From NCBI GenBank assembly GCA_963678065.2, contig CAXXVZ010000002.1:288001-352000 (forward strand): a stretch of DNA of 64,000 bases. The letters are read 5' to 3'. The stretch comes from Treponemataceae bacterium (GTDB lineage Bacteria > Spirochaetota > Spirochaetia > Treponematales > Rectinemataceae). The notes beneath the pieces are model-generated. The model worked only from the letters and a program-made list of their open reading frames with translations, was not told the origin of the DNA and made no database searches. The translations under genes were made by a program, and so were the position numbers. Positions within the stretch are counted from its first letter, which is position 1. Each line of letters starts with the position of its first letter. Below are positions 7,990-57,456 of the stretch, piece by piece.

Positions 7990-7995
7990 GGGCGG

Positions 7996-9065: not shown

Positions 9066-9144
9066 ATCGCGGCCCGCCTCGCGCGAGCGATTCTCGTCTT
9101 CGTCGCTGTCATGCCGGAGCCCCCTTCAGCCCTTCGCGCCGCGC

Positions 9145-10329: not shown

Positions 10330-10362
10330 TTCATTCCTCCTGTATCGAAACGATCTGACGCT

Positions 10363-13408: not shown

Positions 13409-13522
13409 GCTCCGTCCCGCTCCTTGCGTTCCCGCGTTTTCGCTTTTCGCGCTGTGTCCGGTGCGCAGGCCTCAACCTTTGGCCGCGCCGCGAAGGATTA
13501 ACCCTTGACTGACCTTCGGGGC

Positions 13523-15231: not shown

Positions 15232-15253
15232 TCTCTCCCCCCGACGCGCTGCC

Positions 15254-22374: not shown

Positions 22375-22462
22375 ACACTTCCTCCTTCACCCACCGCACG
22401 ATATCCGTCTGCCTCCAAGGTGGTTCGCAACGAAGCGACTCCCCGAAGACATAAATCCCCTG

Positions 22463-30040: not shown

Positions 30041-30109
30041 CTGACTACCCCTTCAATCCGAACAAGGTCTGCTTCAATGGCCTGCGTATAGTGACATTCG
30101 CCACCAACG

Positions 30110-30991
30110 CTATGTGTGATCCGAACCGAAACGCGTGCCATAGCCGAATGCGCCGTGCTCCATACAGGTTTTTGCGGCCATTGCCGCGCCGTTTTCAAGC
30201 GATTCCCTCACCAAGCGGTTATATTTCTCTGAGCCAGTTTCCAGTTCGCCAGCGAAAGCCTTTTTGCCTCTCATGAGGGAGACGAGAAATCCCGCAGCGA
30301 ATGAATCTCCCGCGCCTAGCGTATCCACCGCTTTGACCTGATACGCTTCCTGCCGGAAAATCGCATGCCCATCGAATAACAATGAGCCGCGCTGCCCCAT
30401 TGTAGCGATTATTATTCCGCAGCCCTCACGGTGCAGCCTTCTGCACGCGTCGATCACATGGTCGGCGGCAACATCGCCGCATGAAATGAATCCAAACGAC
30501 ACGTTCGGGGATACTTCTCTGCTTCGAGCGGGGTCTTTCCATGAATTGGAAAAGTCGTAAGAGACAGGAACCTTCAACGATGCAACCAGCCCCAACTGAG
30601 TGTCGAAATGGCCATTGTTGCTCGTATGCACGAGATCGAAATTCTTTATATATGCACAGTCAGCGGAAGTCAGACGGATGGGGTGATCTTTCGCGACGCC
30701 GCCTTTGTTGCTTTGTACAAATATGCGCTCACCATCGACAATATCGACCATCGCGTAGCCGTTCTCACCTTCGTAGTGCCTGCAGTGTGAGCGATCTATT
30801 TCGATAGCATCAAGCACCGAGAGTACGTGCGCCGCGATTTCATCGGTACCGAACACGCCCATATAGGCAGCCGGAACGCCCAATTGCTTTGCGAATACCG
30901 CAACATTGAGCGCCTGCCCGCCAGGATACATGTATCCCGAATTCAAGTACTTATCGCAGACGTTGTCTCCGATACCGATTACGCCAAGCAA
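30110..30991 (-). CDS. frlD: Fructosamine 6-kinase (PfkB family, FrlD-like)
   Basis: IGDNVCDKY, YPGGQALNVAV, GVFGTD, GENGYA, SYDFS, DTLGAGDSF; TTG start. Confidence 0.88.
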   Translation of the reverse strand: MLGVIGIGDNVCDKYLNSGYMYPGGQALNVAVFAKQLGVPAAYMGVFGTDEIAAHVLSVLDAIEIDRSHCRHYEGENGYAMVDIVDGERIFVQSNKGGVAKDHPIRLTSADCAYIKNFDLVHTSNNGHFDTQLGLVASLKVPVSYDFSNSWKDPARSREVSPNVSFGFISCGDVAADHVIDACRRLHREGCGIIIATMGQRGSLLFDGHAIFRQEAYQVKAVDTLGAGDSFAAGFLVSLMRGKKAFAGELETGSEKYNRLVRESLENGAAMAAKTCMEHGAFGYGTRFGSDHT

Positions 30992-31032
30992 AGTGCCCCC
31001 TGACGAATAAACGAGCCGTATTCACATTCATC

Positions 31033-31087
31033 ACAGTCGTCTTATGACTGTATAAGTTATCATAGAACGTATTATTCCAGTTGTCAA
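31033..31087 (-). promoter_or_regulatory. Sigma70 promoter of the frlD operon with candidate GntR operators
   Basis: TTGACA (31087-31082)-17 bp-TATGAT (31064-31059); inverted repeat ACAGTC-N7-GACTGT at 31033-31051 and GTTATCATAGAAC at 31056-31068 overlapping the -10. Confidence 0.8.
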
Positions 31088-31112
31088 TCTTTTTTTTGCT
31101 CAGATTGATAGG

Positions 31113-31835
31113 CTAAAACACAAACTTATACCTGTCTCCCCGTATGAATTGGAGAGAGAGATGCACCGGACGGCTGGCGTCGTCGTATACGATCCCTTTG
31201 AGCCTGAAAAGAGGGGAGTTTGGCCGAATGTTCAGTTGAGATGCGATGGCGAAAGTAGCCAGCGATAGCTCAAGAGTCTTTTTGGCGCTGGAAAGCCTGA
31301 CCCCATGCTCCTTGAGCACCTCGTAAAGAGATTTAGTCTCCAAGTCAGACTGCATGAGATACGAGAAAGGTTTATAAGAGAAATAATTATTCTCAAGAAG
31401 AAGCAGATCGCCATCCGCGTACCGAAGACGCTGGATATGAATCACGTGATCGCCTGGTTCAATGAGCAGCTCTCGGCGTTCGCTTTCGTCTGGTTCCCTG
31501 ATCTCGCGTTTTATGACCTTGCTTCCAGGCCGCATCCCATTGTATGCGCATGCGGTCGAGAAACTGACGAATTCGATTATCTTTCGCTCCAGTTTCGGTT
31601 TTTCGACAAATGTTCCTTTGCCCTGGTGCTTTTCGAGCACCCCTTCCTTAACCAGCTCGGTGATGGCTTTCCGAACGGTGATGCGGCTTATTTTGTACTT
31701 TTCACTCAACTCGCTTTCAGATGGAATACAGGTACCATACCCGTATTCACCGGATTCAACTGCTGCGGCCAAGACTTCCTTCAGCTGTTGATAGAGTGGA
31801 GTCACGATGTTTTGATCAAGAATTTGCTGAGGCAT
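31113..31835 (-). CDS. frlR: GntR/HutC-family regulator with UTRA domain (FrlR-like)
   Basis: PLYQQLKE, IPSESEL, ISRITVRKAI, QGKGTFV, RLRYADG, SLYEVL, RGDRYKF. Confidence 0.88.
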   Translation of the reverse strand: MPQQILDQNIVTPLYQQLKEVLAAAVESGEYGYGTCIPSESELSEKYKISRITVRKAITELVKEGVLEKHQGKGTFVEKPKLERKIIEFVSFSTACAYNGMRPGSKVIKREIREPDESERRELLIEPGDHVIHIQRLRYADGDLLLLENNYFSYKPFSYLMQSDLETKSLYEVLKEHGVRLSSAKKTLELSLATFAIASQLNIRPNSPLFRLKGIVYDDASRPVHLSLQFIRGDRYKFVF

Positions 31836-45691: not shown

Positions 45692-47440
45692 TTATGCGGG
45701 GCGGAATATGACTTCCGAGACGGCGACCGATCTCTCCTCGCCCGGAGCAAAGCCCGCGACCCTCAGTTTGACGCGGTAGCTTCCCGCCGCGGCGATGACG
45801 ATCCTCCCCGTGACGGTGATCTGTTCCGGGAAGTATTTCGCCCGCGGATCGTCCACCGTTTCATCCTCCCGAAGCTCGCTTTCGAGGCGCTGCCCCGCCA
45901 TTTCCAGGGAGACCCTGTGCCCCCTCCCTGCAGGAGGAAGTTCCGGATGCGTTTTTACGGACACCACCGTGGCGACATACTCTCCGGGTTCGAAAACCCT
46001 GCACGACCAGGACAACCAGGTTTTCCGGTTTGTCCAGCCTGCCGTGTACCCGGGACGCGATATTCGGGCCTTGCCGTATGCGGGAGCGTGTATTCGGGCC
46101 ATGCGGACCGGCAGCCTGATGCATGAGTCGGGCTGCTGCATGAGGCCGGAATCGACGCACAAATCTCCTTCAAACTCCAGCGCGACCACTCCGATATTCA
46201 GGGGAGGAGAGGCCCCGAAACCTTCGATATACAGAATATCCCTTTCGGGATTCCGCTCGATACACTGCCTGACCGCAAGTTTCTCGGACGGATCGGACAG
46301 GCACCAAGCCTCTTTCACTCTGCTCTTGAGTCCGTAAAGCGTAAAAGTACCCTGGGGCCACGAGAACATGAAAAGATAGAGTCGTCCACGCTTCCAGGTC
46401 ACCCGGCCCCAGGAGAAATCGAAGGAGAATGGGCTCGCCTGGGTGCCGTAGATGGCTTCGCCGTTTATTTTCATCCACGCTCCGATTCCCTTCAGTCTTT
46501 CGACACTTTCAGGCGGGAAAAAGCCATCGCCGTCAGGACCCACATTGAGAATGTAATTGACTCCCTTGGCGGCGAGATCGACGAGGAGACAGAGCAGTGT
46601 GTCCAGGGATTTCCATTCCCTGTCGCCGGATTTGTATCCCCATGTGTCGTTCATCGTGCCAGGGGTTTCATAGTCTCCGTCTATCCCGCCGGCGGGCAAC
46701 TGGTTGTCGCCGAGGCTGCCGTAATCGCCGAGGTCATGACCGATCCGGCCACTCACGAGACAGTCAGGCTGGAACGACCTGACATATTCCGCGAGCTCCC
46801 GGCTGTGTTCCGCGCTGATCGTGTACGGCGTATCGAACCAGATGAGTCCGATCGGGCCGTATCCCGTCAGCAGCTCCCTGAGTTGGGGTTTTACCTTCCT
46901 CTCGAGATAGGCGCGAAAATCCTTTTTTGCCGGGTCGAAATCCCAGTCATTCCAGGCGCCGTCGGGATCGTGCCAGTCCTGATCCTGCGAATAATAGAAA
47001 CCCAGTCTGATTCCCGCTTCCGCGCAAGCCGTCGAGAGCTCCTTGAGAGGGTCCCGCTTCCATGGAGTCGCGGCGACGATATTGTAGGGGTTGTCCGGAG
47101 AGTCGAACATCGCGAATCCGTCATGATGTTTGGCGGTGATGACGATGTACTTCATTCCGGCTTCTTTGGCAAGCGCGACCCATTCCACCGCGTCGAATCC
47201 CGAAGGAACAAATCCGGCCGCGATCGATGCGTATTCGTTTCTGGGAATGCGTCGCGCGTGCATGATCCATTCGCCTATACCGTCCACTTCCTCACCCTTC
47301 CAGAATCCCGCAAGCTTCGAGTACAGCCCCCAGTGGATGAACAGCCCGAATCGCGCTTCCCGCCACCAACGAAGGGCCTCTTCATTGAAAACCTCAGCCT
47401 GTCCACGACCGCCGAAGAGGTCCCTTTTGGTCAACTTCAT
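45692..47440 (-). CDS. GH29 alpha-L-fucosidase with C-terminal extension
   Basis: WWREARFGLFIHWGLYS, AGMKYIVITAKHHDGF, GFYYS..DW, IWFDTP, TMNDTWGY, LNVGPDGDG, WMKINGEAIYGT. Confidence 0.93.
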   Translation of the reverse strand: MKLTKRDLFGGRGQAEVFNEEALRWWREARFGLFIHWGLYSKLAGFWKGEEVDGIGEWIMHARRIPRNEYASIAAGFVPSGFDAVEWVALAKEAGMKYIVITAKHHDGFAMFDSPDNPYNIVAATPWKRDPLKELSTACAEAGIRLGFYYSQDQDWHDPDGAWNDWDFDPAKKDFRAYLERKVKPQLRELLTGYGPIGLIWFDTPYTISAEHSRELAEYVRSFQPDCLVSGRIGHDLGDYGSLGDNQLPAGGIDGDYETPGTMNDTWGYKSGDREWKSLDTLLCLLVDLAAKGVNYILNVGPDGDGFFPPESVERLKGIGAWMKINGEAIYGTQASPFSFDFSWGRVTWKRGRLYLFMFSWPQGTFTLYGLKSRVKEAWCLSDPSEKLAVRQCIERNPERDILYIEGFGASPPLNIGVVALEFEGDLCVDSGLMQQPDSCIRLPVRMARIHAPAYGKARISRPGYTAGWTNRKTWLSWSCRVFEPGEYVATVVSVKTHPELPPAGRGHRVSLEMAGQRLESELREDETVDDPRAKYFPEQITVTGRIVIAAAGSYRVKLRVAGFAPGEERSVAVSEVIFRPA

Positions 47441-48726
47441 GCCGGATCTCCTGCGGCCAAAGCCTCTTCCATCGCTATCGCGGCCCACTCGTGGAGCCGG
47501 CGCGGCTCGTTCAGGACCGTGGAGTTATCTTTCATGATAATTTCGAGGGACACTCCCGCCTCTCGGGTTTTCCGGATAACCTGCCGCAGTTCAGTCCGGG
47601 CGCGTCCGGGATTCCAGACCCGGTCGACGAAGACGGCCGGATTGGGTTTCCACGAGAAGACGAATGCGTTCCCGTAATTCCGGATCGCTTCGTCGAGATC
47701 TGCCCAGGGACTCATGGATATTTTCCGGAGCTTGGGTATGCGTCTGACCTGTTCATGCTTCGCGTGGAGGGCTTCGCAGCAGCCGTAATAATTGTATCCC
47801 CAGCGCGAGAGCCACGGGATGTCATGTCGCAAGGCGAATTCCCAATGCATCTCGGGAGAAACGCCGGAAAATATCTGGGCATTCGAACAGCCCCACATCT
47901 CGGAAGGACCCGCGATTCCGTCCCCGGCCTCGTTTCCGGCCTGCGAATCCGCCACATTGCCGTAACCTCCGGACCCGACGCGCACATTCGTGGTTCCGAT
48001 GGAGAGAAGCCCTTCGCGCCCGAACGAGTCGAGAACCTTCAGCGCTTCCGATACATATGTGCCGACCGCGAGATTGACGAGGTCGGGCTGGAGCACGAGG
48101 TCCATCATAGCCTGTTGGACTCCCCAGACACGTATGAGGTTATCCCATGGCGTATACCAGATGTGCCGGACTCCCCTCAGCTTGACGGGGAGCACCTGTC
48201 CGAATGCCTCGAGGGCAGCGCCGTAGGCCAGCTCGGTTTTCTGTCGGTCGTAAGACGCCGGCATGAGGCGGACCAGCCTCTCGACATCCTTCTCGTCCTC
48301 TATCTGCGGGACGAACTCGTGGGAACTGATCCCCTGCTCCCCGGCCTGCGGAATCGTCTTTTCCAGCACATCGAGCCTGAAGGAGCCGCCGGTCCACGAT
48401 TTCGTCACCTCGAACCAGGGCGACACGATCATGTCGCAGGGCATGTGGCGCCATTGGTAGAGGATTTTCCTTAGCCGGAACTCCCACTCTTTCGCGAGTT
48501 CGCCGGTGCATCGGAGAGTCAACTCACCTTCCGAATCCAGTTCGTGCCAGGGAATCTCGTTGATCCAGACCATAGGTCTTTCCGCTCTGTTTTCGTTGAG
48601 ATCCGCCCACAGCCGTCCCCGCGTCGCGTTGCCCGGATCGGCAGCCGCAGCGGCGTATTCGTCGGCGAGACGAACGAGAATTCCCCTGTCCCGCGGGGAG
48701 ATAGCGCCATATTCACCGGTCTCCAT
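47437..48726 (-). CDS. URO-D/MtaA-fold protein, paralogue 1
   Basis: EIPWHE, VSPEMHWEF, YYGCCEALH, LRKISMSPW, FSWKPNP, EIIMKD. Confidence 0.7.
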   Translation of the reverse strand: METGEYGAISPRDRGILVRLADEYAAAAADPGNATRGRLWADLNENRAERPMVWINEIPWHELDSEGELTLRCTGELAKEWEFRLRKILYQWRHMPCDMIVSPWFEVTKSWTGGSFRLDVLEKTIPQAGEQGISSHEFVPQIEDEKDVERLVRLMPASYDRQKTELAYGAALEAFGQVLPVKLRGVRHIWYTPWDNLIRVWGVQQAMMDLVLQPDLVNLAVGTYVSEALKVLDSFGREGLLSIGTTNVRVGSGGYGNVADSQAGNEAGDGIAGPSEMWGCSNAQIFSGVSPEMHWEFALRHDIPWLSRWGYNYYGCCEALHAKHEQVRRIPKLRKISMSPWADLDEAIRNYGNAFVFSWKPNPAVFVDRVWNPGRARTELRQVIRKTREAGVSLEIIMKDNSTVLNEPRRLHEWAAIAMEEALAAGDPA

Positions 48727-48734
48727 ATGCCATC

Positions 48735-49802
48735 CTACCTTTTGCGCATTTCCAGGTACGCTTCCTGGTAAATGAGAGCGCTCTCGACGGGAGTGTTCTG
48801 GGGAATATGGTTGCCCGTGCAGAATATGAAGCCCGGGTATGGTTTCCCGGTATCCATGCAGCGTTTGACTTCCGCGCGTATCTCCTCTTTCGTGCCCGAC
48901 AGCAGCACCCGCGTATCCGCGTTTCCGACGAACCCGTGCGTCTTGCCGTAGCGTTCGGCGAAGAGAGCCATATCGCTCATGGGCTCCATGACGACCGTAT
49001 CCGCCCCGCACTCGATGATGTCCCCGAAAAACGCCGTCCAGTCACCGTCGGACGTGAACATGATTTTCTTTCCCGCTTCCTTGAGCGGAGCCCAGAGTTT
49101 TTTCATGCTGGGGAAAATATACCTGCGGTACCAGGCCGGATTCACGACAGGTCCGGAGGTCCAGCACAAATCGTCGTGGGACATTATCACGGGAATCCGT
49201 GAGTCGGCGTAGGCTTCATAGAATTGCCGTACCCACCCGTAATACCGATCCACTATTTGGCCGAAGCGGTCCGGATCGAGTCCGAGACTGGTCAGCAGCA
49301 TGTCCCAGCCGAAAATGTCGATGAGACCCGAGAACATGGTAATGTAGACGCCTCCCGTATTGACGGTGTCCTCGTTCTCCCTGCAGAGTTCGTCATACTT
49401 GGCTTCGAATTCCGCGATGAGCGCGCTTCGGGGAAAAATTCCGTATTCTTCGATGGGGTCGAAGGTGAACACCTCTTCGGGATCGGAGAAGGGACAGGCT
49501 ATGCTTTCCCGCCGATCCCCGCTTCCGTCCGCCAGCTCGGCGTAGACGGCGTGTCCCATGTCGGTGAATCTGCCCTTGTTCCTCTGGAAAAATTTCCTGT
49601 TTACATACGTCGACCAATCGAATGCGTAATCCCAGGCCTTGATGAATCTCCGCGAGGCTTCTCTGCGGTTTTCGATGATATCGGTATCGATTCCCGTCAC
49701 GGCTTTCAGAAGAGGCCAGTGACTCTCCGCCGAATACTCGGTCCGGGGCACGGTATCGGTGAACTCCAGATTGAGGGCGGCAAGCCCGCTTTTCAATGAC
49801 AT
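48735..49802 (-). CDS. URO-D/MtaA-fold protein, paralogue 2
   Basis: SHDDLCWTSGP, WYRRYIFP, FTSDGD, GNADTRVLLSGTKEEIRAEVKRC, GFIFCTGNHIP. Confidence 0.82.
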   Translation of the reverse strand: MSLKSGLAALNLEFTDTVPRTEYSAESHWPLLKAVTGIDTDIIENRREASRRFIKAWDYAFDWSTYVNRKFFQRNKGRFTDMGHAVYAELADGSGDRRESIACPFSDPEEVFTFDPIEEYGIFPRSALIAEFEAKYDELCRENEDTVNTGGVYITMFSGLIDIFGWDMLLTSLGLDPDRFGQIVDRYYGWVRQFYEAYADSRIPVIMSHDDLCWTSGPVVNPAWYRRYIFPSMKKLWAPLKEAGKKIMFTSDGDWTAFFGDIIECGADTVVMEPMSDMALFAERYGKTHGFVGNADTRVLLSGTKEEIRAEVKRCMDTGKPYPGFIFCTGNHIPQNTPVESALIYQEAYLEMRKR

Positions 49803-49836
49803 CGTCGGTCCTCCATTGTATGGTTCACGGCGAGGA

Positions 49837-50901
49837 TCAGGCGCCTTTTGCGGCGAATTCCCGTGCTGCGTCGTAGATCGCGAGGATGTTCGCAGTGGGC
49901 ACTTCCGGAAGGAAACTCTGACTCGGTCCGAGAATGTATCCTCCGCCGGGGCTCATCGTTTCAAGAGTCGAGAGGACTGCCCGGCGCACATCGTCCGGAG
50001 TGCCGAAGGGCAGCAGTTCCTGGGTATCTATTCCGCCGTTGAACGACATCATGCGGCCGAATTTCCCCTTGAGCGTCGCGGGATCCATGCCCCGCGCGGC
50101 GACCTGCATCGGATTCATCGCGGTCACGCCCATCTGCGCAAAATCCGGAATGAGCGCCGAAACGCTGCCGCAGGAATGGAACTGCACGAGATAGCCGGAA
50201 TCCCTGGCGAGATCTATAAGCCTGACGAGCCTTGGCTTTACATACCTCCGCCACAGGTCCGCGCTCGTGAGCATATCCTGCTGGGTGCCGTAATCGTCGC
50301 CCATGAAAAAAACCTGCATCCGGTTTTTCAACCGCGAGAATATCCTTTTGTTGATTTCGAGGGAAATTTCCGTGATCCTGTCGAGGACGAAGCACAACAG
50401 CTCCGGATCATCGTAGAAGAGCATCATGTAACGTTCCATCCCGAAGAGCATCTGCGCGATGTAGGTGACCGGGGCCCAATACCCGCCATAGACGCAATAG
50501 TCGTCCGCGTTCGAAGCCGCTTTTTCTATCGCGTCGTAATCCACATCGTCCGGATCGAGATACAGATGGCTGTCGGCCTCTTCGATCGTATCCGTATCCG
50601 CGAGAGGATGACCGACGGCGGTGCCGAACTGCCTGTCCACGAGCGCGCCCCAGGCATTCTTCACACGCTTTTCGTCGAAGGGTTTTGCGGGGACAGAGGC
50701 CGATGTGTAGACAACCGTGTTCCTGAAATCCACTCCCAGCGAGCGCAGCATGGCTTCCTTGTCGCTCGTTCCCAATGCGGCGCACACGCGCGCCACAACA
50801 TCGGCCGATGGCTCGATATCGAAATCGACAGCTATCCTGTCGGCCTCCCGGCGCGTCATGGCGCAAAGAGCCCTTTCCCTGGGGGACATCTGAATGTTCA
50901 T
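49837..50901 (-). CDS. URO-D/MtaA-fold protein, paralogue 3
   Basis: MSPRER, GDDYGTQ, FHSCGSV, NPMQ, GGIDTQELLPFGTPDDV, GGYILGPS. Confidence 0.88.
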   Translation of the reverse strand: MNIQMSPRERALCAMTRREADRIAVDFDIEPSADVVARVCAALGTSDKEAMLRSLGVDFRNTVVYTSASVPAKPFDEKRVKNAWGALVDRQFGTAVGHPLADTDTIEEADSHLYLDPDDVDYDAIEKAASNADDYCVYGGYWAPVTYIAQMLFGMERYMMLFYDDPELLCFVLDRITEISLEINKRIFSRLKNRMQVFFMGDDYGTQQDMLTSADLWRRYVKPRLVRLIDLARDSGYLVQFHSCGSVSALIPDFAQMGVTAMNPMQVAARGMDPATLKGKFGRMMSFNGGIDTQELLPFGTPDDVRRAVLSTLETMSPGGGYILGPSQSFLPEVPTANILAIYDAAREFAAKGA

Positions 50902-50927
50902 GCTATTCTCCGGTGCGCGGAAAACAT

Positions 50928-50951
50928 GCCGGCGGCGGTGAAGCCGCCGGC
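50928..50951 (-). other. Hairpin downstream of the SBP gene (weak terminator or stabiliser)
   Basis: GCCGGCGGC-6 nt-GCCGCCGGC followed by ATGTTTT on the minus strand. Confidence 0.6.
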
Positions 50952-50964
50952 CTCTGGTCATTTT

Positions 50965-52497
50965 TTATTTTTCGAATTTTTCCTGATAGACAGCCTTCGC
51001 TTCGGCGATGACTTCCTTTCCGCCCGAACTCATCCACTCCGCGACGAACTTGTCGAATTCGGCAAGAGAGCGCTGGCCGGTTATGAAGCCGGCGAAGGCT
51101 TTCTCCTCTATCGTCTGCAGATTGACCTTGTATTTTTTCCAGGCTTCGAGCGGGTATCCGGCGATGGCATCCATGGGGCCGATGGCTTTGGACCGTTCCT
51201 TCGCGATCCAGGCTCCGTCCTTGGTGGCTCCGTCGTAGATGTCGTAATTGGGGAACCAGGGGAAATAATTCATGCCGTATTCACCGCGTTTCTCGAAGGT
51301 GTCATAGGGAGGAATCCATTCGGGATAACCTTGGGCGTTCTTTTTGTAGGTGATGCCTTCATCGCCGTGGTAGATTTTGACTTCCCACTTTTCGGTACTG
51401 AGAAGTTCGTCCCAGATCTGGAACCAGCGACGCATCTTTGCCTGGTCTTTCTCAAGGTGCTTTCCGAACACGACCATAGGTATGACTTCCATGACATTCA
51501 TCTGGCGCATGCCCCTGTCGCCCCTTGGACCTGTTATGGGGGCGATGGTGGTGGGCTTGGCTTTCGGATTCACCGCGACCACGGGATCGTAGAGTTTCCC
51601 GGAGAAATATTTGACCGAGGGACCAGCCGTCCACCAATAGGTATCGGGGATGAGGCCGAACTTTCCGTTGATCCACTTTTCCTGAAACACATTGTAATTG
51701 TCGACAAAGAACGAAGGATCGATGACGCCATCCTTGTACCACTTGTTGAGCAGGGTCAGCGCTTCCTTGGTTTCGGGGAGGATGGAGCCATAGACAAGCT
51801 CGCCGTTCTTGATCTGGAAAATCTGAGGATGCGCTCCGAAAGCTCCGTAGATCGGGGCGAACATCTGGACCTGTCCTGGCGTGTTGTAGAAACTCATCCC
51901 GTAGGTGTCTTTTATCCCGTTGCCGTCGGGATCGTTGTTGCGGAATGCGTAGAGCACTTTTTCGAGGTCGACGAGCGTCGTAGGGGTCTTCATGCCGAGC
52001 TTTTCGAGCCAATCCATGCGGATGGACATGACACGACAGTGGTCTCCCAGGGGCCAGGCCGTGGGGAACCCATAGTTTTTACCTTTGACACTCGAGAACG
52101 CGAAGGCGCCTGGCTGGATTTTCATCAGGTACTCGTACATGCGGGGCGCTTCTTTCTGGATGAGCTCGCGCGGAACTTCCGCGATGACACCCTGCTCGGC
52201 GAATTTACTCAGCATGTTGTAATCGTAGGCGATGAACGCGTCGATCTTCTCGCCTGAAGCGATCATCAGCTGAAGTTTCTGTTTGTTCTCCTCCGTGCTC
52301 AGGCCCTTGTTGTTGAGCGCCTTGAATTTCACATTGAAGGCTTTTTCGATCGCGACCTTGATGGCCGCGTCCTGCGGAATTTCATAATCGTAGACGATGG
52401 TCATCTCCATCGGTTTTGCCGAACCTTGGGCATGGACATTGAGCGAAACCGCGAGCGCCAACGCAACGAATCCGGAAATGATTCTGCCTTTCGTCAT
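50965..52497 (-). CDS. Carbohydrate ABC substrate-binding protein (LplA-like)
   Basis: Signal peptide, LMIASGE, IRMDWLEKLGMKTP, AFRNNDPDGNGIKDT, WYKDGVID, FDKFVAEW. Confidence 0.9.
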   Translation of the reverse strand: MTKGRIISGFVALALAVSLNVHAQGSAKPMEMTIVYDYEIPQDAAIKVAIEKAFNVKFKALNNKGLSTEENKQKLQLMIASGEKIDAFIAYDYNMLSKFAEQGVIAEVPRELIQKEAPRMYEYLMKIQPGAFAFSSVKGKNYGFPTAWPLGDHCRVMSIRMDWLEKLGMKTPTTLVDLEKVLYAFRNNDPDGNGIKDTYGMSFYNTPGQVQMFAPIYGAFGAHPQIFQIKNGELVYGSILPETKEALTLLNKWYKDGVIDPSFFVDNYNVFQEKWINGKFGLIPDTYWWTAGPSVKYFSGKLYDPVVAVNPKAKPTTIAPITGPRGDRGMRQMNVMEVIPMVVFGKHLEKDQAKMRRWFQIWDELLSTEKWEVKIYHGDEGITYKKNAQGYPEWIPPYDTFEKRGEYGMNYFPWFPNYDIYDGATKDGAWIAKERSKAIGPMDAIAGYPLEAWKKYKVNLQTIEEKAFAGFITGQRSLAEFDKFVAEWMSSGGKEVIAEAKAVYQEKFEK

Positions 52498-52562
52498 CGA
52501 TAGCTCCTCCCCCTCTGTGTATTTTCAAGCTGGTCCGGGTAAGTGTGGCGGGACCGGTCCCG

Positions 52563-53444
52563 TCAGCCTTTGACCGAACCGAGCATGATTCCTTTCGTAA
52601 AATGCTTCTGTATGAACGGATAGATCATCATGATGGGCACCACGGAAACGATGATGACGGCTGCCCTGATCTGCAGAAGCTGAAAATCCGTGCTCTGCGC
52701 TTTTCTGACATCGTTCATCATTTCTCCGGAATTCTGGATCAATATTTCCCTGAGGACTATCTGAAGAACCTGTTTCGATTGTTCGGTTATGTAGAGCATC
52801 GCATCGAACCAGTTATTCCAGTGCCAGACCGCAACCCAGAGGCCGATCGTGGCAAGTACCGGTTTGGAGAGGGGAATGATGATCCTGAAAAAAACCGCGA
52901 TGTCTCCGGCTCCGTCGAGCTTCGCCGATTCCTCGAGTGATTCCGGGATGGACCGGAAAAAATTACGGATGATGATGATATTGAAAGTGCTCACAACGCC
53001 TTGGACGATGAGGGCGAAGCGTGTATTGATAAGACCGAGTTTCCGCATCAAAAGGTAGTTCGGGATGACCCCGCCATCGAAGAGCATGGTGAATACGAAC
53101 AGAAACGTAAAAAATTTGACGCCGGGAAATTTCTTTTTGGACAGAGGATAGGCAGTGATGCTGTAGATGAACAGCGCGAGGCAGGTTCCGAAAACGGTGC
53201 GGATTGTCGAATTCAGGAATCCCGTCCAGATGTTCTTCGACTTGAGTATGAGTCCGTACGTAGCGAATGTCAGCTCTTTGAAGTTCGGGAACATATGAAA
53301 ACCGGGACTGTAAGCCTCTTTCGTCGTGCTGACCGAAAGGGTGAGCTGGTTGATGAAGGGGTACATCGTGCTGAGGGCGAGGGCAGTCAGCACAATATAG
53401 TTGAATGCCTCGAAAATAATGCGCTCGGGACTTTTCCGTTTCAT
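52563..53444 (-). CDS. Carbohydrate ABC permease (LplC-like)
   Basis: AYPLSKK, FDGGVIPNY, SLEESAKLDGA, WNNWFDA, YPFIQKHFTKG. Confidence 0.92.
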   Translation of the reverse strand: MKRKSPERIIFEAFNYIVLTALALSTMYPFINQLTLSVSTTKEAYSPGFHMFPNFKELTFATYGLILKSKNIWTGFLNSTIRTVFGTCLALFIYSITAYPLSKKKFPGVKFFTFLFVFTMLFDGGVIPNYLLMRKLGLINTRFALIVQGVVSTFNIIIIRNFFRSIPESLEESAKLDGAGDIAVFFRIIIPLSKPVLATIGLWVAVWHWNNWFDAMLYITEQSKQVLQIVLREILIQNSGEMMNDVRKAQSTDFQLLQIRAAVIIVSVVPIMMIYPFIQKHFTKGIMLGSVKG

Positions 53445-53451
53445 GTTCCGC

Positions 53452-54381
53452 CTACCACAGACTGCTTTCTTTCCCGCCGAGGGAAACCGCGATCCTGTTC
53501 GAGATGTAAATAAGCACCAATCCGACCAACGATTTGGAAAAACCGACAGCGGCTCCGTAGCTGTAATTGAATTCCACAATGCCTTTCTTGAACACGAAGG
53601 TGTCGATGATCTCGCCTATCTCAAGCACGAGGGGATTGAACAGATTGTAGATCTGGTCAAACCCCGCGTTCAGAATAAAACCGGTATTGAGGATCAGAAG
53701 AATCGCCGCCACCGGAAGTATCGAAGGTATGGTTATGTGGATAGTCTGCCGGAAACGTCCGGCTCCATCGATTTCCGCGGCCTCGTAGAGGTCGGGATCG
53801 ATGGAGGAAAGAGCCGCCATGTAGACGACGGAACTCCATCCCATCTCCCTCCAGATCGCGGTTCCCACAACGAGACTCAAGAAATATTTTGGAATCGCGA
53901 AAAACAAGAGGGGTCCCTTTCCGGAAAGTCCGCGAAGATAATTGACCGGACCTTCGGGAGAGAATACCCGGAGAAAAATTCCCGCGAGCACGACCCAGGA
54001 AATAAAATACGGCAGGTAGATAAGAGTCAGGTACACTCTCTTGGTTCTGGTTCGGGAAACCTCGTTGAGCAGCAACGCTATGAGTATGGGCACCGGAAAA
54101 CCGATAAAAAGCTTGAGTCCGCTGATGACGAAAGTATTTTTCAGGGCATTCAGGAAAAATCTGTCGGAGAAGGCCTCGCGGAAATATTTGAGGCCGACCC
54201 ACTCGCTGCCGAGAATCCCCTTGCCGAAATTGAATTCCTTGAATGCGATGAGGAGTCCGTAGATCGGCACGTATTTGAAGATGATGAGCAGTATCACGCC
54301 CGGAATCATCATGAGATACATCTGCCTGTAGTAATTCATGCGCCCGAGGCGCACTCGCATCCCGGCAATTCCCCGCGCCAT
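53452..54381 (-). CDS. Carbohydrate ABC permease (LplB-like)
   Basis: SEWVGLKYF, YLPYFISWVV, LYEAAEIDGA, AAVGFSKS. Confidence 0.92.
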   Translation of the reverse strand: MARGIAGMRVRLGRMNYYRQMYLMMIPGVILLIIFKYVPIYGLLIAFKEFNFGKGILGSEWVGLKYFREAFSDRFFLNALKNTFVISGLKLFIGFPVPILIALLLNEVSRTRTKRVYLTLIYLPYFISWVVLAGIFLRVFSPEGPVNYLRGLSGKGPLLFFAIPKYFLSLVVGTAIWREMGWSSVVYMAALSSIDPDLYEAAEIDGAGRFRQTIHITIPSILPVAAILLILNTGFILNAGFDQIYNLFNPLVLEIGEIIDTFVFKKGIVEFNYSYGAAVGFSKSLVGLVLIYISNRIAVSLGGKESSLW

Positions 54382-56439
54382 TCAGTCCCCCAGTCCCTGA
54401 ACCAGGATGATTTTGTGGATAAAGACCGTGCCGGCATCCACACGGGAGCCGCGTTCCGATCCGACGGATACGAGAGGCCTGTCTTCCGGATATACCTCTC
54501 TCGCGGTCACCGGTCTGTCGGTTCCGAACACAAGCTGCCCCGCCGGTATCGGAGGGCAATCTCCTCCGCTCATGCCCGGTATCATCGACACGATGTGGAT
54601 GATCATCTCCGCGCCGCGCCGGAAAGCGGTGAAACCGACCGTACCGGGATTGGCGGTCTCGAGCCTCACAAGGGGATCCGGCAACGCCAGGTCAAGCACC
54701 GCGGACAGGAATCCCTTGACCCAGGCGCCATCCTCCGCGGCAAAGCCGAAGAGGTCGAATCCGGCATACCAGAAGGTTCCGGCACCGATGGCCATGCGGA
54801 CGATGAGTGGCTCTCCGGTCCTCCTCGCGGGCGGCGGATATCCCCAGTTGACCCAGGTCTCCGGCCCGAGGATGACAGCCGGCTCGACGAAAACCGCTGT
54901 CGGGTCGACCGGAGAGGAGAAACGGATGGATGCAGAACTTATCGGCGGCGTAGTGTCCGGGATGCCGGCCCTGAAACCATCCGGGTTGAATCCGGCGTAG
55001 CCTCCCCAGTGATTGACCGCATATTCGTCCCGCAGCCCGGTGAAATGGATGCCGGTCGACGCGGCGAATGCGTAATCTGCGGCCAGTGTCCCGTCAGGCT
55101 TGCGAAGACCGGATTCTCCCGACGCGATGACCGTGCTGCCTGCGCGCATGAATGTTTCCAGCTTTTCCCATGTCCCCGGCCCGAAGACGAGGACCTCGGG
55201 CAGGATGATCACGCGGAGCGAAGCGAGCATCCCGGAGGAAAGCTCCGCTTCGGGAACGACTGTCCAGGTGCGCTTCGAAAAATCGCAACATTTCATGGCG
55301 CCGAGCACCGCGCTCACATGCCGGTTGGGTGTCCGGGTCCGTGCGATGGCGTGAGCGACCACGGCGCCGGCGGTTCCGACCCTCACGGAATCATCGCTCT
55401 GCACGATGCCAATATCCGCGACTATAGTTCGGTTTCCGAGGAGATGCTCGAACTTCTTTACTTCGCGATAGGCCGCGCCGATGCGTCTCGCCTCTTCGCG
55501 CTCGAGCGTACCGTCGGGCCTCTGGGGCTCGGAATACATGAAAACCCGGCACCCCTGCGCGGCGATCTGGGCCGCGGCAGCCACATAGACGCTTTCGGGA
55601 AGGTAGTTGTAGACACTGGAAACATCTCCGGGTCCGAGTTGGGGGAACCGCCCTGTCGCCCTCGCAAATGCGGCGGAAAGCCAGTTTCCCGCCCAGGGTT
55701 CCGTGAAATGATAATCGAGCTTGTCCCGTATGCGCTTGGGGTAATGAGAAGAGAAATTGATCGTGACGGCGAGTCCCGGATCGATGGATTTTACGGTCGA
55801 AACCACATCGTCCAGAAAACCTTCGGCGCAATCGTCCAGAAATCCGAGAACCTCGGCTGAGACCCCGGAGAGTCCTTCCCCGGTTTCCGGAAGCGGATAA
55901 CCGTACCGCTCGCCAAAAATCCTGCGGCATTCCGGACAGTAACACAGGGACTTGCCGAAAATGTCCAGGAAGAGACTGTCCGGGTGATAGCGGGATACAA
56001 TCTCCGTGAGCTGATCCAGGACATAGCGACGGTAGCCGGTCATATAACAGGCCATGCGCCATTTCGCGTTCCGCGAGGCACTGCGCAATTCCTCTCCATC
56101 CGCCTTTCTGATTGCCCAGTCCGGATGCTTCCCTGTTATCGTATTATCATATTCCACAGAGTAATATGCGTTGAACTCAATGTCTTTCTTTCTGAGTTCC
56201 GCCACCGTTTCCGCCACCCAATCCCGATCGAGCGCGGGATGTCTTTCTCCACAGACAGTATCGTAATACGAGTATCCCCAGTGGTCCTTGCAGTACACCA
56301 TGAGGCTGTCGATACCTGCCGTACCGAAGAATGAGGCATGCTCTGCGATATCGAGTCTGTCGAAGGTGACTGCTGGAGGCGCGGGAGAGTGATTGTCGAT
56401 CAGATAGCCGCGAAACCTTTTTTTGTAAAGATCGGCCAT
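54382..56439 (-). CDS. GHL6/GH151-like putative alpha-L-fucosidase with GATase-like domain
   Basis: YCKDHWGYSYYDT, HPALDRD, AYYSV, HPDW, FLDI, CYCPEC, VIILPEV; first gene of the operon. Confidence 0.75.
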   Translation of the reverse strand: MADLYKKRFRGYLIDNHSPAPPAVTFDRLDIAEHASFFGTAGIDSLMVYCKDHWGYSYYDTVCGERHPALDRDWVAETVAELRKKDIEFNAYYSVEYDNTITGKHPDWAIRKADGEELRSASRNAKWRMACYMTGYRRYVLDQLTEIVSRYHPDSLFLDIFGKSLCYCPECRRIFGERYGYPLPETGEGLSGVSAEVLGFLDDCAEGFLDDVVSTVKSIDPGLAVTINFSSHYPKRIRDKLDYHFTEPWAGNWLSAAFARATGRFPQLGPGDVSSVYNYLPESVYVAAAAQIAAQGCRVFMYSEPQRPDGTLEREEARRIGAAYREVKKFEHLLGNRTIVADIGIVQSDDSVRVGTAGAVVAHAIARTRTPNRHVSAVLGAMKCCDFSKRTWTVVPEAELSSGMLASLRVIILPEVLVFGPGTWEKLETFMRAGSTVIASGESGLRKPDGTLAADYAFAASTGIHFTGLRDEYAVNHWGGYAGFNPDGFRAGIPDTTPPISSASIRFSSPVDPTAVFVEPAVILGPETWVNWGYPPPARRTGEPLIVRMAIGAGTFWYAGFDLFGFAAEDGAWVKGFLSAVLDLALPDPLVRLETANPGTVGFTAFRRGAEMIIHIVSMIPGMSGGDCPPIPAGQLVFGTDRPVTAREVYPEDRPLVSVGSERGSRVDAGTVFIHKIILVQGLGD

Positions 56440-56532
56440 GACATGTCTCCGGAACGAAAGATTTTGATAGGGACGGTAAAAACATCCTAAGTCCGGTTTT
56501 CAGGGAAATGAATATCCAATGTGGACAAGAAT

Positions 56533-56562
56533 TTGACAAATTCGGCAATATGGATCGATACT
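56533..56562 (+). promoter_or_regulatory. Possible leaderless promoter for the AraC gene
   Basis: TTGACA-18 bp-GATACT-6 bp-ATG(56569). Confidence 0.5.
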
Positions 56563-56568
56563 GGCCCC

Positions 56569-57456
56569 ATGAAGCACGATATCGGGATTCTCGGTACGGG
56601 GTTTTCATCCCACTACGGACGGTACAGCGTGCGCGTGAGCAGCGCCCGCACCCTTGTCTGGAGAGAATATCCGACGAATCGGCGGCACATGCACAAAGAG
56701 GAGTATGAGTTCAACCTGGTGCTGGATGGCTCAGGCGAATACCATCACCGGGACAGGGTGTATCCTCTCGAAAAAGGAGACATTTTCGTATCGGAACCCT
56801 ACGTCCCCCACGAGATCAGCTCGTTGCGAACGAAAGACCTCCATGTGCTCTGGCTCAATGTCTACATAGATGAGGTCGACGCGAAGGTCGCCCCCCGGTA
56901 TGAAGACAGGCTGATGGATGAATTCATGCGGGGGCACCAGAACTATCTGTCGGGTCGGACATTTCTCCTCGGCTATCTCCCGATCCTGTCCAGAACGGCA
57001 TCCAGCACGAGTGCCCGGAAACTCAGCGGGCAACATCTCGTACAGAGTCTCTTTTTCGATCTCGTCGAACTCTTCAACATCGCCAAACCCGATTTCGACA
57101 ATCCGGACATGAATATCGACCAGAAGCCTTTCACCATTCTCAATAAAGCCAGCAATTTCATCATGGCGAATCTTTCCGGGGAACTTTCGATCAACGACAT
57201 CGCCCGTTCGGTATTCACTTCAGAGAGGAATCTCCGCCACCTTTTCCGGAAACACATGAACATTACCGTTGTCGACTATGTCAATTCCAAAAAAATGGAA
57301 CACGCGGGCTATCTTTTAACCCTGCAACTTCAGGTACAAGAGGTCAGCGAGGCCGTCGGCATCGCGTCTCCCGCCCAGTTCAGCCGCCTCTTCAAGCGAT
57401 ATCAGGGAATCGCACCCAAAAAATTCCAGGAAAACCACGAACCGATTTACACATAG
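56569..57456 (+). CDS. AraC-family regulator with cupin sensor domain, divergent from the fucosidase operon (alternative GTG start at 56521)
   Basis: RHMHKEEYEF, KGDIFV..PYVPHEI; SERNLRHLFRK, FSRLFKRYQGIAP. Confidence 0.9.
   Translation: MKHDIGILGTGFSSHYGRYSVRVSSARTLVWREYPTNRRHMHKEEYEFNLVLDGSGEYHHRDRVYPLEKGDIFVSEPYVPHEISSLRTKDLHVLWLNVYIDEVDAKVAPRYEDRLMDEFMRGHQNYLSGRTFLLGYLPILSRTASSTSARKLSGQHLVQSLFFDLVELFNIAKPDFDNPDMNIDQKPFTILNKASNFIMANLSGELSINDIARSVFTSERNLRHLFRKHMNITVVDYVNSKKMEHAGYLLTLQLQVQEVSEAVGIASPAQFSRLFKRYQGIAPKKFQENHEPIYT

Follow-up and report, generated by a model that had tools for sequence, protein, structure and literature searches.

The stretch of DNA analysed, 64,000 nucleotides long and referred to below as the window, carries an operon whose genes all lie on the minus strand and which is transcribed divergently from the gene of an AraC-family regulator (Table 1). 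Pfam, PDB and fold searches recovered in place the gene set that a sequence-only reading had listed, namely AraC, a GH151-like protein, two permeases, a solute-binding protein, three URO-D-fold proteins (U1, U2 and U3) and GH29. Residues 41-446 of the GHL6 protein match the alpha-L-fucosidase 6TVK in PDB sequence comparison, a distant likeness (E = 1.8e-22) that makes the GH151 assignment one by overall sequence and not by catalytic residues; 6TVK is described as the GH151 enzyme ALfuk2, the source of the family label (PMC10154630). The GH29 protein is a clear member of its family. The solute-binding protein was without a match in the Pfam scan and resembles the family-1 binding proteins AlgQ1 (6e-21) and 5xs8 (5e-21) in the PDB sequence search. 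Between its gene and U1 lies a terminator-like hairpin, which is a consensus match only. Judged from the reading frames, translation likely starts at MKRKS for permease 2 and at MKLTK for GH29, the latter overlapping the U3 stop codon. The operon is best explained as encoding an importer of fucosylated oligosaccharides together with two alpha-L-fucosidase-type hydrolases acting on them. Among the operon genes and the scanned ORFs elsewhere in the window (37 of 43), there was no heme, corrinoid, activase or fucose isomerase, kinase or aldolase family, in agreement with the sequence-only reading, and no acceptor methyltransferase.

Table 1. Features of the operon and of related loci elsewhere in the genome (contigs C3 and C4)
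Feature	Position	Strand	Evidence or remark
AraC-family regulator (cupin sensor and HTH)	56521..57456	+	Pfam HTH_18 3e-16, AraC_binding 1.7e-11, Cupin_2 8.2e-11
GH151-like alpha-L-fucosidase candidate (Pfam GHL6), operon gene 1	54382..56439	-	GHL6 1.4e-24
ABC permease 1 (CUT1 type)	53452..54381	-	BPD_transp_1 1.7e-15
ABC permease 2	52563..53444 (ORF to 53579)	-	BPD_transp_1 2.5e-11; start inferred, likely 53444
Large extracellular solute-binding protein, oligosaccharide type	50965..52497	-	PDB sequence matches
G+C-rich hairpin, 9 G-C pairs, T-rich tail	50928..50951	-	Terminator-like scan; consensus match only
U1, URO-D/MtaA-family	49837..50901 (ORF to 50961)	-	PF01208 6e-21; start likely 50901
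U2, URO-D-family	48735..49802	-	PF01208 3.7e-22
U3, URO-D-fold protein, start METGEY	47437..48726	-	AF2/Foldseek, iterated HMM, hhalign
GH29 alpha-L-fucosidase	45692..47440 (ORF to 47488)	-	Alpha_L_fucos 6.2e-79; 9rzx GH29 1.5e-101; start likely 47440
Corrinoid carrier, 211 aa, DxHxxG motif, small His-on type	C4:259650-260282		
RACE activase, adjoining corrinoid carrier	C4:260457-262322		
Pterin-binding protein	C4:68961-69974		
MtaA-like paralogue	C3:944404-945777		

The earlier claim of three strongly diverged URO-D-fold paralogues holds for U1 and U2 by PF01208 and for U3 by fold and profile searches. The AF2 model of U2 (pLDDT 93.9) has 4ay7 as its first Foldseek match (4.2e-13), and hhalign relates U2 to the U1 family at 99.7%. 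U3 had no Pfam, NCBIfam or PDB sequence match; HemE and MtaA structures lead the Foldseek list of its AF2 model (pLDDT 86.8; E = 1.2e-6), it is also picked up by an HMM built iteratively, in this genome, from U1 and U2, and hhalign places it with the U1 family at 83% (E = 8.7e-6). It has 2316 homologues, with a Pfam domain in 0 of the 120 listed, and by sequence and model comparison it is the founder of a large unannotated family in the URO-D superfamily. The U2 orthologue family is highly conserved (2064 homologues at E <= 1e-20), with T-x-D, H and HDD invariant in alignment A2, and the invariant residues of U3 include C280, H294, C316-C317-E318 and E395 (alignment A1). The motifs FHSCG, FTSDG and YGCCE, at which the paralogues had been said to differ in their presumed metal site, are present, occupy common profile columns and are each conserved within their own orthologue family. 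At the metal-site positions of MtaA, U1 has H242-x-C244 and Q328 (alignments A3 and A4), U2 has T250-x-D252 and H332, with no Cys or His in its first motif, and U3 has Cys-Cys-Glu and Glu. The His-Cys-Cys zinc triad is thus absent from U1, U2 and U3.

In NCBIfam, models of MtaA/CmuA methyltransferases come closer than HemE, and none of the three proteins scores as HemE or bona fide MtaA. The MtaA/MtbA/CmuA family (TIGR01463; 4ay7) has the fold and Pfam family in common with them and provides the best models for U1 and U2; 4ay7 is also the best PDB sequence match of U1 (E = 2.5e-6), which retains His-x-Cys. However, U1 and U2 reach at most a quarter of the family cut-off (56.7 bits versus 244 for the MtaA-type model that is best for U1; 52 and 38.5 bits versus 235.4 for MtaA/CmuA), Gln replaces the third zinc ligand in U1, no carrier gene is adjacent and the context is glycan-catabolic; coenzyme M would not be expected as the acceptor. 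The Pfam family name and the HemE structures among the Foldseek matches, which include the first match of U3, are all that speaks for one paralogue being the organism's HemE for tetrapyrrole synthesis. Almost certainly none is, as the sequence-only reading had held, because the hemE equivalog model did not match U1 or U3 and gave U2 26.6 bits versus a cut-off of 302.95, among the four strongest PF01208 paralogues, which were scanned with this model, the highest score was 100.4 bits, the scanned window ORFs include no heme gene, and the family is massively expanded in this genome. Moreover, phylum genomes with one strong HemE-like match (E 1e-72 to 1e-139) form a separate set with no URO-D expansion.

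The genome contains 44 URO-D-superfamily ORFs. Of the enrichment beside glycoside hydrolases and sugar transporters on which the earlier reading depended, that near sugar transporters was found: an ABC permease lies within 5 kb of 28 of the 44, compared with 35.5% of background ORFs (p = 1.4e-4), and U3 relatives lie by fucosidases. Outside the window the genome further encodes two small corrinoid proteins and a single RACE-type activase. The 211-aa carrier and the activase (C4:259650-262322) have a PocR-AraC regulator and CobW as neighbours, with GH3 and an esterase on the flanks; the second carrier adjoins an H-x-D-type URO-D paralogue, and the one DUF1638 gene adjoins a second U3 copy. An ORF at C3:944326-945759 is a 48% orthologue of an MtaA-like paralogue inside the carrier/activase islands of two relatives (L073 and L091). 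The suggestion, made from the operon, of a corrinoid partner encoded elsewhere is backed by the genome search and by co-occurrence.

Among the genomes searched, the U3 family and the URO-D expansion are confined to activase-bearing genomes. The activase is present in 24 of 24 U3-carrying genomes tested. In a phylum sample of 151 genomes, which are related and thus not independent, it occurs in 42 (28%) and U3 in 14, all 14 being activase-positive (Fisher p = 2.7e-9); at genus level, all 11 U3 genera fall among the 32 of 87 that are activase-positive (p = 4.6e-6). With a threshold of at least eight URO-D candidates, picked after the data were seen, the expansion was found in 24 genomes of this sample, all activase-positive, and in 0 of 109 activase-negative genomes. 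The activase was detected in 5 of 201 Bacteroidota sampled (about 2%) versus 7 of 7 U3-carrying Bacteroidota tested. The activase was likewise detected in Pontiella, Vallitalea and a Phycisphaerales MAG, whose genomes each encode a carrier of about 210 aa; the carrier adjoins the activase in Pontiella and in both Bacteroidales MAGs. The co-occurrence could instead mirror a shared lifestyle.

The neighbourhoods of U3 in relatives were compared at 80 loci. A carrier, activase, DUF1638 or CobW gene lies within 10 kb of U3 in five of them (L044, L053, L069, L073 and L091), and in L044 these are immediately followed by genes for a pterin-binding protein and MTHFR. Near U3 were also found rhaM mutarotase (29/80), an RbsA-type ATPase (26/80), an SSF symporter (15/80), GH29 (14/80) and sulfatase (11/80) genes; monosaccharide transporters, mutarotase genes and fucosidases thus adjoin U3 relatives. 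A Spirochaetales MAG (L028) carries AraC, a U1-like gene, a solute-binding protein, two permeases, a GH151-like gene (40%), U2 (67%) and U3 (50%) in one string. The neighbours of U2 orthologues in L111-L113 were uninformative.

These results bear on whether the paralogues are corrinoid-independent, metal-dependent sugar converters on a URO-D barrel, acting as isomerase, epimerase or decarboxylase or by MetE-like direct methyl transfer. The locus has no carrier, the metal-site residues of U1, U2 and U3 are all unlike those of MtaA, the invariant residues of U2 could hold a metal other than zinc, and the superfamily is described as including cofactor-free HemE and cobalamin-independent MetE (PMC10418091). 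MetE is among the Foldseek matches, as are, weakly, rhamnose isomerase and a psicose-producing enzyme. However, the restriction of U3 and of the expansion to activase-bearing genomes, the carrier, activase, DUF1638, CobW, pterin-binding protein and MTHFR genes adjoining U3 in several relatives, and the H-x-D paralogue directly adjoining a carrier weaken this alternative, which the sequence-only reading had offered as another metal-dependent step and which we consider unlikely.

Corrinoid-dependent methyltransferases might also use donors other than sugars, such as methoxylated aromatic aglycones or other methylated small molecules co-imported with glycosides. The activase co-occurrence applies equally to such donors, the characterised UroD-superfamily O-demethylases named in PMC10418091 work on phenolic methyl ethers, and the paralogue at the second carrier lies among CoA-transferases, a 3-hydroxyacyl-CoA dehydrogenase and an aldehyde:ferredoxin oxidoreductase, with no sugar genes. 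This explanation is nevertheless quite improbable, considering that the operon content is purely glycan (an ABC importer for oligosaccharides plus two fucosidase-type hydrolases) and that no aromatic-catabolism gene was seen among the scanned window ORFs. Furthermore, the U3 modules of relatives occur with rhaM mutarotase and with transporters of the SSF or monosaccharide-type ABC class, so that free sugars fit better than aromatics.

The trio may alternatively divide the labour, with U1 and/or U2 loading the carrier from the sugar and U3, as an MtaA-like acceptor side, unloading the carrier by passing its methyl group to a thiol or another acceptor. The invariant C280, C316, C317, E318 and E395 of U3 stand at MtaA metal-site columns; U3 has 1-4 copies per genome versus 11-99 URO-D candidates in the same genomes; its cross-phylum identity (44-50%) exceeds that of adjacent U1-like genes to U1 (29-36%); a U1-like gene lies beside it (same strand, <400 nt) in 24 of the 80 loci; and a pterin-type acceptor enzyme was mostly not found, the pterin-binding protein of the L044 type occurring in only one of the 151 phylum genomes, G000 itself. 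However, U3 lies mostly in substrate loci and not in carrier/activase islands, of which L073 and L091 hold a separate MtaA-like paralogue, and only 14 of the 42 activase-positive genomes carry it, so that it cannot be a general acceptor enzyme; such a division is accordingly rather doubtful.

Corrinoid O-demethylase systems of anaerobes consist of methyltransferase I, a corrinoid protein, methyltransferase II and an activating enzyme. This genome, too, encodes a UroD-superfamily methyltransferase, a small His-on corrinoid protein and a RACE-type activase, and by analogy this scheme is the predicted working principle of the trio. However, such systems as described form compact operons for aryl methyl ethers, whereas here the methyltransferases are scattered over sugar loci, the carrier/activase island is separate and aliphatic methyl ethers of sugars are proposed as substrates. 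Among such systems, OdmB and VdmB are named in PMC10418091. Type 1 mlp clusters (Kountz and Balskus preprint, PMC10418091) likewise combine several MtaA-like paralogues with a corrinoid protein and an activase outside methanogenesis, and likewise have no folate methyltransferase in the cluster as described; unlike the operon, they hold carrier and activase inside the cluster, with an invariant His-Cys-Cys site and sulfur or selenium contexts. The words 'sugar' and 'carbohydrate' do not occur in that preprint. Cytochrome P450 demethylases of methylated sugars, as described (PMC6292453), have the proposed net reaction in common, removal of a sugar O-methyl group enabling catabolism, but are unrelated monooxygenase-type enzymes, and the system proposed for the operon would need no oxygen.

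Considering these results, we favour, with a probability of about 0.45 and thus tentatively, the prediction that U1, U2 and U3 belong to a dispersed set of corrinoid methyltransferases, each specific for its substrate, which act as O-demethylases of methylated fucose or related sugars and share one carrier/activase hub. Fucosylated oligosaccharides would be imported and cleaved. In the cytoplasm, the three proteins would strip methylated fucose, or sugars neighbouring it, of O-methyl groups, each transferring the methyl of the sugar ether to Co(I) of the common 211-aa corrinoid protein, which the activase would hold in the reduced state. The methyl may then pass to tetrahydrofolate via the pterin-binding protein or to a thiol, through an MtaA-like paralogue (for instance that at C3:944404-945777). 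The differences among H-x-C...Q, T-x-D...H and C-C-E...E may correspond to distinct substrates or steps. In this hub-and-spoke scheme, a single carrier and a single activase would serve some forty methyltransferases dispersed in sugar loci.

Several points count against O-demethylation of sugars through a shared hub. Carrier and activase are in neither the operon nor the window, and two carriers for about 44 methyltransferases are unlike the layout of described systems, in which the carrier is encoded together with its methyltransferase (PMC10418091). No precedent for Co(I) cleavage of an aliphatic (sugar) methyl ether was found in the literature searched, and the MtaA/CmuA scores far under the cut-offs and the missing zinc triad also count against it. 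In the earlier proposal of O-demethylation with a partner encoded elsewhere, comparative evidence now supports non-heme enzymes and a corrinoid partner, while the O-methyl-sugar substrate and the direction in which the methyl group moves are what we infer. If the prediction is true, the trio would take methyl groups off sugars in an oxygen-independent way, with a B12 carrier encoded elsewhere in the genome as the likely intermediate.

The operon comprises eight close-set minus-strand genes and a divergent AraC regulator (Table), with intergenic gaps of 0 to ~65 nt, and the start of its last gene, for a GH29 fucosidase, overlaps the stop codon of U3, one of the three genes for URO-D/MtaA-fold proteins (U1, U2 and U3). 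Genes for an MFS_3 transporter and an SNF2 helicase flank the operon, and a promoter scan found 6 sites against 6.0 +/- 2.3 in shuffles, giving no evidence of promoters. Judging from its sequence, the hairpin that separates the binding-protein gene from U1 could act as a partial terminator or stabilise the RNA, thereby setting the ratio of binding protein to enzyme, and it favours the listed start of U1. The product of the first gene, a GHL6-domain hydrolase, matched the α-L-fucosidase 6TVK (ALfuk2) with E 1.8e-22 over query residues 41-446, and the two permeases and the extracellular binding protein make up a CUT1-type carbohydrate ABC importer. ALfuk2 belongs to GH151 according to an excerpt of its description (PMC10154630), with D154 as the catalytic Asp nucleophile and E235 as the Glu acid/base, whereas the GHL6 protein is likened to it by overall sequence match. 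No ABC ATPase gene was found in the operon or among 37 of the 43 other window ORFs, and the same scan confirmed the claim, made from the sequence alone, that the locus has no heme, corrinoid, activase or fucose-catabolic genes. A fucose-isomerase-family gene lies elsewhere in the genome, on contig C4 (seven matches, six above the cut-off).

Table. Coordinates of the operon genes and of other features in the window and on contigs C3, C4 and C5 of the same genome
Feature	Location	Strand	Description
Further glycan locus	4505-16525		rhamnosidase-like protein (Bac_rhamnosid6H), GH88-like protein, CUT1 permease, binding protein; response regulator with AraC output, Cache/HAMP histidine kinase
ORF, 746 aa	16846-19086	+	no Pfam match (E<=1e-8)
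Segment of lower G+C	20800-31835	-	G+C 0.50-0.55 vs ~0.60-0.65 around; GntR/UTRA regulator, PfkB kinase, hydantoinase A/B (oxoprolinase-type) pair, Opp-type ABC system, SIS protein
ORF, 537 aa	40718-42331	-	no Pfam match (E<=1e-8)
Operon	45692-57456		eight genes and divergent AraC regulator
GH29 fucosidase	45692-47440	-	Pfam 6.2e-79, 266.4 bits vs PF01120 cut-off 25.2; solved GH29 9rzx 1.5e-101; last transcribed
U3	47437-48726	-	no Pfam match; URO-D fold
U2	48735-49802	-	PF01208
U1	49837-50901	-	PF01208
G+C hairpin	50928-50951	-	9 G-C pairs, T-rich tail
Binding protein, 510 aa	50965-52497	-	no Pfam match; resembles AlgQ1-type oligosaccharide-binding proteins
Two BPD_transp_1 permeases	53452-54381; 52563-53444	-	Pfam
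GHL6-domain hydrolase	54382-56439	-	first transcribed; 6TVK match
ORF, 386 aa	60413-61573	+	no Pfam match (E<=1e-8)
MtaA-like orthologue	C3:944326-945759		amid housekeeping genes
Pterin-binding protein	C4:68961-69974		
Island locus L108	C4:250000-269000		12/14 ORFs scanned
Carrier and activase island	C4:259650-264839		
Carrier 1, 211 aa	C4:259650-260282		B12-binding_2 + B12-binding, DxHxxG
Activase	C4:260457-262322		single copy in genome; RACo_C_ter 4.5e-66 + Raco_middle
Locus L015	C4:278103-297600		
Second U3 copy	C4:289317-290615		45% identical
Fucose-isomerase-family gene	C4:313469		
Locus L027	C5:1074941-1089693		
Carrier 2	C5:~1082993-1083577		small corrinoid protein

The sequence-only reading had described three divergent URO-D-fold proteins, which proved right even for U3, the one that the libraries leave unnamed. 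U1 and U2 matched PF01208 with 75.3 bits (6e-21) and 79.2 bits (3.7e-22), respectively, at a cut-off of 23.9, and U3 gave no sequence match in Pfam, NCBIfam or PDB. In Foldseek, the first 25 listed matches of the U3 AF2 model (pLDDT 86.8, built on 28 of 120 listed homologues) were all HemE/MtaA structures (best E 1.2e-6, TM 0.48-0.59), with MetE and BHMT following weakly, and the first match of the U2 model (pLDDT 93.9) was the MtaA-type methyltransferase 4ay7 (4.2e-13, TM 0.65-0.68); the UroD-type (beta/alpha)8 fold was found in both models. Furthermore, iterating an HMM within the genome, with U1 and U2 as its starting point, recovered both U3 copies, and hhalign linked the families of U3 and U1 at 83% (E 8.7e-6) and those of U2 and U1 at 99.7% with 18% identity. 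Of 7998 scored candidates for the U3 family, 2316 are homologues at E<=1e-3, and at least 582 confirmed stretches lie in one-genome-per-species contigs; the matches listed come from Spirochaetota, Planctomycetota, Bacteroidota, Verrucomicrobiota/Kiritimatiellia (Pontiella), Lentisphaerae (Victivallis), Chloroflexia and Bacillota (Vallitalea), and among the 120 listed homologues none has a Pfam domain and each name given is 'hypothetical protein'. At E<=1e-20, U2 has 2064 homologues, and identity over the 120 listed ranges from 52 to 99%. For U1, 8952 cluster representatives were found at E<=1e-3, the closest just 54% identical, and the sequences suggest a fast-diversifying family.

HemE identity was rejected on the TIGR01464 scores (cut-off 302.95 bits), U1 and U3 giving no match and U2 26.6 bits. 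Neither the operon nor the 37 further window ORFs covered by the scan include a tetrapyrrole-pathway gene. U1 and U2 also lay far under the curated cut-offs of all NCBIfam models, the best model for U1 being of MtaA type (56.7 bits vs a cut-off of 244), and the MtaA/CmuA model TIGR01463 (cut-off 235.4 bits) gave 52 bits for U1, 38.5 for U2 and none for U3. The four strongest PF01208 paralogues of the genome, namely the three top matches and one beside the second small corrinoid protein, were scanned with NCBIfam, and the three top matches scored 115-179 bits with the MtaA/CmuA model and at most 100.4 bits with hemE. Among 151 genomes of the same phylum with completeness of at least 80 (the phylum sample), those with a single strong HemE-like match (E 1e-72 to 1e-139) were distinct from those with expansions.

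The three motifs at the presumed metal site share columns in the profile alignments of U1 with U3 and of U1 with U2. U1 carries H242-x-C244 as its first motif and Q328 at the position of the third zinc ligand of MtaA, and a comparison of 24 close cluster representatives showed H242 to be invariant and C244 to be conserved to at least 90%, with Q, H or N at position 328. U2 carries T250-x-D252 and H332, which are invariant in 24 orthologues from several phyla together with H209-D210-D211, H84 and E273. In U3, the motif is C316-C317-E318, with C317 on the Cys column, G315 on the His column and the third-ligand position at ~E395; C316, C317, E318, E395, C280 and H294 are invariant in 28 relatives. 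Since each variant is conserved within its own family, it is a family feature and not decay, and the difference claimed between the paralogues holds as H-x-C...Q, T-x-D...H and C-C-E...E. Of the 44 superfamily ORFs of the genome, 20 have H-x-C as the first motif, 15 have H-x-D, three H-x-H and six another. The methanol:corrinoid methyltransferase MtaB polarises an aliphatic C-O bond with a Cys/Cys/Glu zinc site, and MetH and BHMT have a Cys...Cys-Cys site for homocysteine. None of U1, U2 and U3 has the canonical MtaA zinc triad, His-x-Cys...Cys, which speaks against a corrinoid-dependent methyl transfer by these proteins. The MtaA-like triad is given as His-Cys-Cys in an excerpt of a preprint (PMC10418091).

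PF01208 matched at 36 places in the genome and B12-binding models at nine, two of the latter being small corrinoid proteins (carriers). Candidates for a corrinoid partner encoded elsewhere, as supposed from the sequence alone, were indeed located: both carriers and one RACE-type ATP-dependent reductive activase lie outside the window. Carrier 1, whose DxHxxG motif is invariant, is 64-78% identical to 25 relatives chosen from 120 listed, and these are labelled corrinoid or MtbC1-like proteins in the sources. It is divergent from the activase, which is followed in the island by a PocR-AraC regulator and CobW; GH3 and esterase genes adjoin, and a URO-D paralogue with a D-x-D motif and an AraC gene lie 7 kb away. 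Other C1 enzymes of the genome are a pterin-binding protein, MTHFR and formate-THF ligase. A Bacteroidales MAG (L109) and Pontiella (L110) have comparable islands, the former beside formate-THF ligase and sulfatase genes, the latter with DUF1638, SSF and GH5. In L027, a URO-D paralogue of the H-x-D type adjoins carrier 2; this locus also contains two family-III CoA-transferases, a 3-hydroxyacyl-CoA dehydrogenase and an aldehyde:ferredoxin oxidoreductase, and it may be a pathway for a non-sugar methyl donor. Methyltransferase, carrier and activase do not occur together in the operon or the window, and a locus without a carrier, like the ratio of ~44 methyltransferases to two carriers, counts against corrinoid dependence.

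Among 80 U3 loci, of which 42 span 15 kb or more, however, corrinoid machinery was found within 10 kb of U3 in five. L073 and L091 contain CobW, DUF1638, an MtaA-like URO-D protein, the activase and a carrier that shares 65% identity with that of the window's genome, so that methyltransferase, carrier and activase stand together there; they do so partly in L044, where a pterin-binding protein and MTHFR directly follow the module, then DUF1638 and the activase, and in L069, with two carriers and DUF1638. The fifth locus, L053, has DUF1638. The MtaA-like gene of the L073 and L091 islands has a 48% orthologue on contig C3. As a general acceptor enzyme, the L044-type pterin-binding protein was dropped because, with it as the query, a match was found only in G000 among the 151 genomes (E<=1e-40). 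The small Pfam-less proteins that follow U3 in L015 and L073 were considered as hidden corrinoid proteins and rejected, giving no B12-binding match even at E<=5; one showed a weak PEMT-like membrane signal.

A U1-like gene was found anywhere in 39/80 U3 loci and on the same strand within 400 nt of U3 in 24/80, and near U3 were rhaM mutarotase (29/80), RbsA-type ATPase (26/80), SSF symporter (15/80), GH29 (14/80), sulfatase (11/80) and GH95 (3/80) genes; Pfam confirmed the neighbour families on 23 representatives of the 40 largest clusters and on 64/96 called ORFs of eight loci. An extra ~390-aa URO-D gene often adjoins the U1-like gene (L055, L083, L089, L096 and L107). The U1-like proteins beside U3 have H-C-C-G-G and S-H-D motifs, and U1 of the window is thus a more distant member of the group. 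The second U3 copy of the genome lies in L015, the canonical U3 module, in which one strand carries a CUT2-type ABC system (Peripla_BP_4 and two BPD_transp_2), two URO-D genes and a rhaM homologue, and the other LacI, U3 and a 194-aa membrane-like protein, followed by the genome's only DUF1638 gene. L028, from a Spirochaetales MAG, mirrors the window with AraC, U1-like, SBP, two permeases, GH151-like (40%), U2 (67%) and U3 (50%) genes. L096 has a hydantoinase A/B pair and an Opp-type ATPase adjoining its U3 module, as seen also in the lower-G+C segment of the window. The loci of U2 orthologues (L111-L113) have mostly housekeeping neighbours and one sugar kinase/SIS/epimerase group. The check on enrichment beside sugar transporters that accompanied the sequence-only reading came out in its favour, 28/44 superfamily ORFs of the genome lying within 5 kb of an ABC permease vs 35.5% of 3,500-odd background ORFs (p = 1.4e-4, with paralogue clusters that are not independent).

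Co-occurrence with the activase was a test that the corrinoid reading could have failed. In the phylum sample, the activase family was found in 42/151 genomes and U3 in 14/151, and all 14 U3 genomes were activase-positive (Fisher p = 2.7e-9, for related genomes, 8/14 of which are from one family). At the genus level, 11/11 U3 genera were positive against a background of 32/87 (p = 4.6e-6). U2 orthologues (E<=1e-60) occurred in 4/151 genomes, all four positive for both U3 and the activase. Furthermore, when URO-D copy number was taken from first-look candidate counts, since scored PF01208 matches were limited to 12 for each genome of this sample, with a threshold picked post hoc on data already seen, the 24 genomes with at least eight candidates (up to 99) corresponded to 24/42 activase-positive vs 0/109 activase-negative genomes. 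Genomes such as G128, G040 and G064 have 60-99 first-look candidates in 3-5 Mb, an unusually large expansion of one superfamily. A sample of 201 genomes from the phylum to which G001, a Bacteroidales MAG, belongs gave U3 in that genome alone and the activase in five, and the U3-carrying Bacteroidota reached through U3 loci, chosen independently of the activase, were positive in 7/7 cases. Pontiella sulfatireligans, Vallitalea maricola and a Phycisphaerales MAG have the activase and a corrinoid protein of about 210-226 aa, and in Pontiella, as in both Bacteroidales MAGs, at most ~2 kb separates the carrier from the activase. In total, the activase was present in 24/24 U3 genomes tested, and among 14 control genomes the family matched Methanosarcina only. 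Lifestyle could, however, confound the co-occurrence.

The data fit a hub-and-spoke system, in which one carrier and activase with accessory proteins would serve many substrate-specific methyltransferases sited in the loci of their substrates. The gene context points to methylated sugars as the methyl donors, here most simply methylated fucose, because importers of oligo- and monosaccharides, fucosidases, rhamnose-type mutarotases and sulfatases surround these genes; the substrate, direction and acceptor of methyl transfer are what we infer within this scheme. For U3, loading of the carrier from an aliphatic ether is one possibility, in keeping with its siting in substrate loci and its presence in just 14/42 activase-positive genomes, and unloading of the carrier onto a thiol is another, for which its low copy number (1-4 per genome) and higher conservation argue. 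We tentatively propose, at a probability of about one in three, that glycan degraders of at least four tested phyla share an oxygen-independent, B12-dependent sugar demethylation, in which one carrier and activase would serve tens of URO-D-fold methyltransferases, and U3 would be a zinc (Cys/Cys/Glu) family that activates the aliphatic methyl ethers of 6-deoxy-sugars (methyl-fucose/methyl-rhamnose).

Sugar methyl ethers stop ordinary sugar catabolism, and cytochrome P450 sugar demethylases require oxygen. In the full-text literature outside subscription journals and bioRxiv supplements, nothing was found that places URO-D/MtaA-like proteins in sugar loci or describes a corrinoid-dependent demethylation of sugars, and the lack of precedent in the papers searched for Co(I) cleavage of a sugar ether weighs against the corrinoid reading. 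The only sugar-demethylating enzyme found in the literature searched is, from an excerpt of its report, a cytochrome P450 monooxygenase (PMC6292453), and 2-O-methyl-fucose occurs in pectin RG-II, as an excerpt of another paper states (PMC10154630). The nearest work is the preprint of Kountz and Balskus on mlp clusters (PMC10418091), which, in its excerpted text, differ from the present loci in their sulfur/selenium contexts and in having carrier and activase inside the cluster. Newly described here are the co-occurrence with the activase, the hub island and the U3 family as a defined group. If true, the proposal would account for the use of methylated glycans without oxygen and for the 20-99 'uroporphyrinogen decarboxylase' candidates of some Spirochaetota, and would assign a function to two or more large families that lack annotation, including U3 (>2300, E<=1e-3) and U2 (>2000, E<=1e-20). 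It would also provide a defined protein set for direct assay and would connect the breakdown of glycans with C1 metabolism and the demand for B12.
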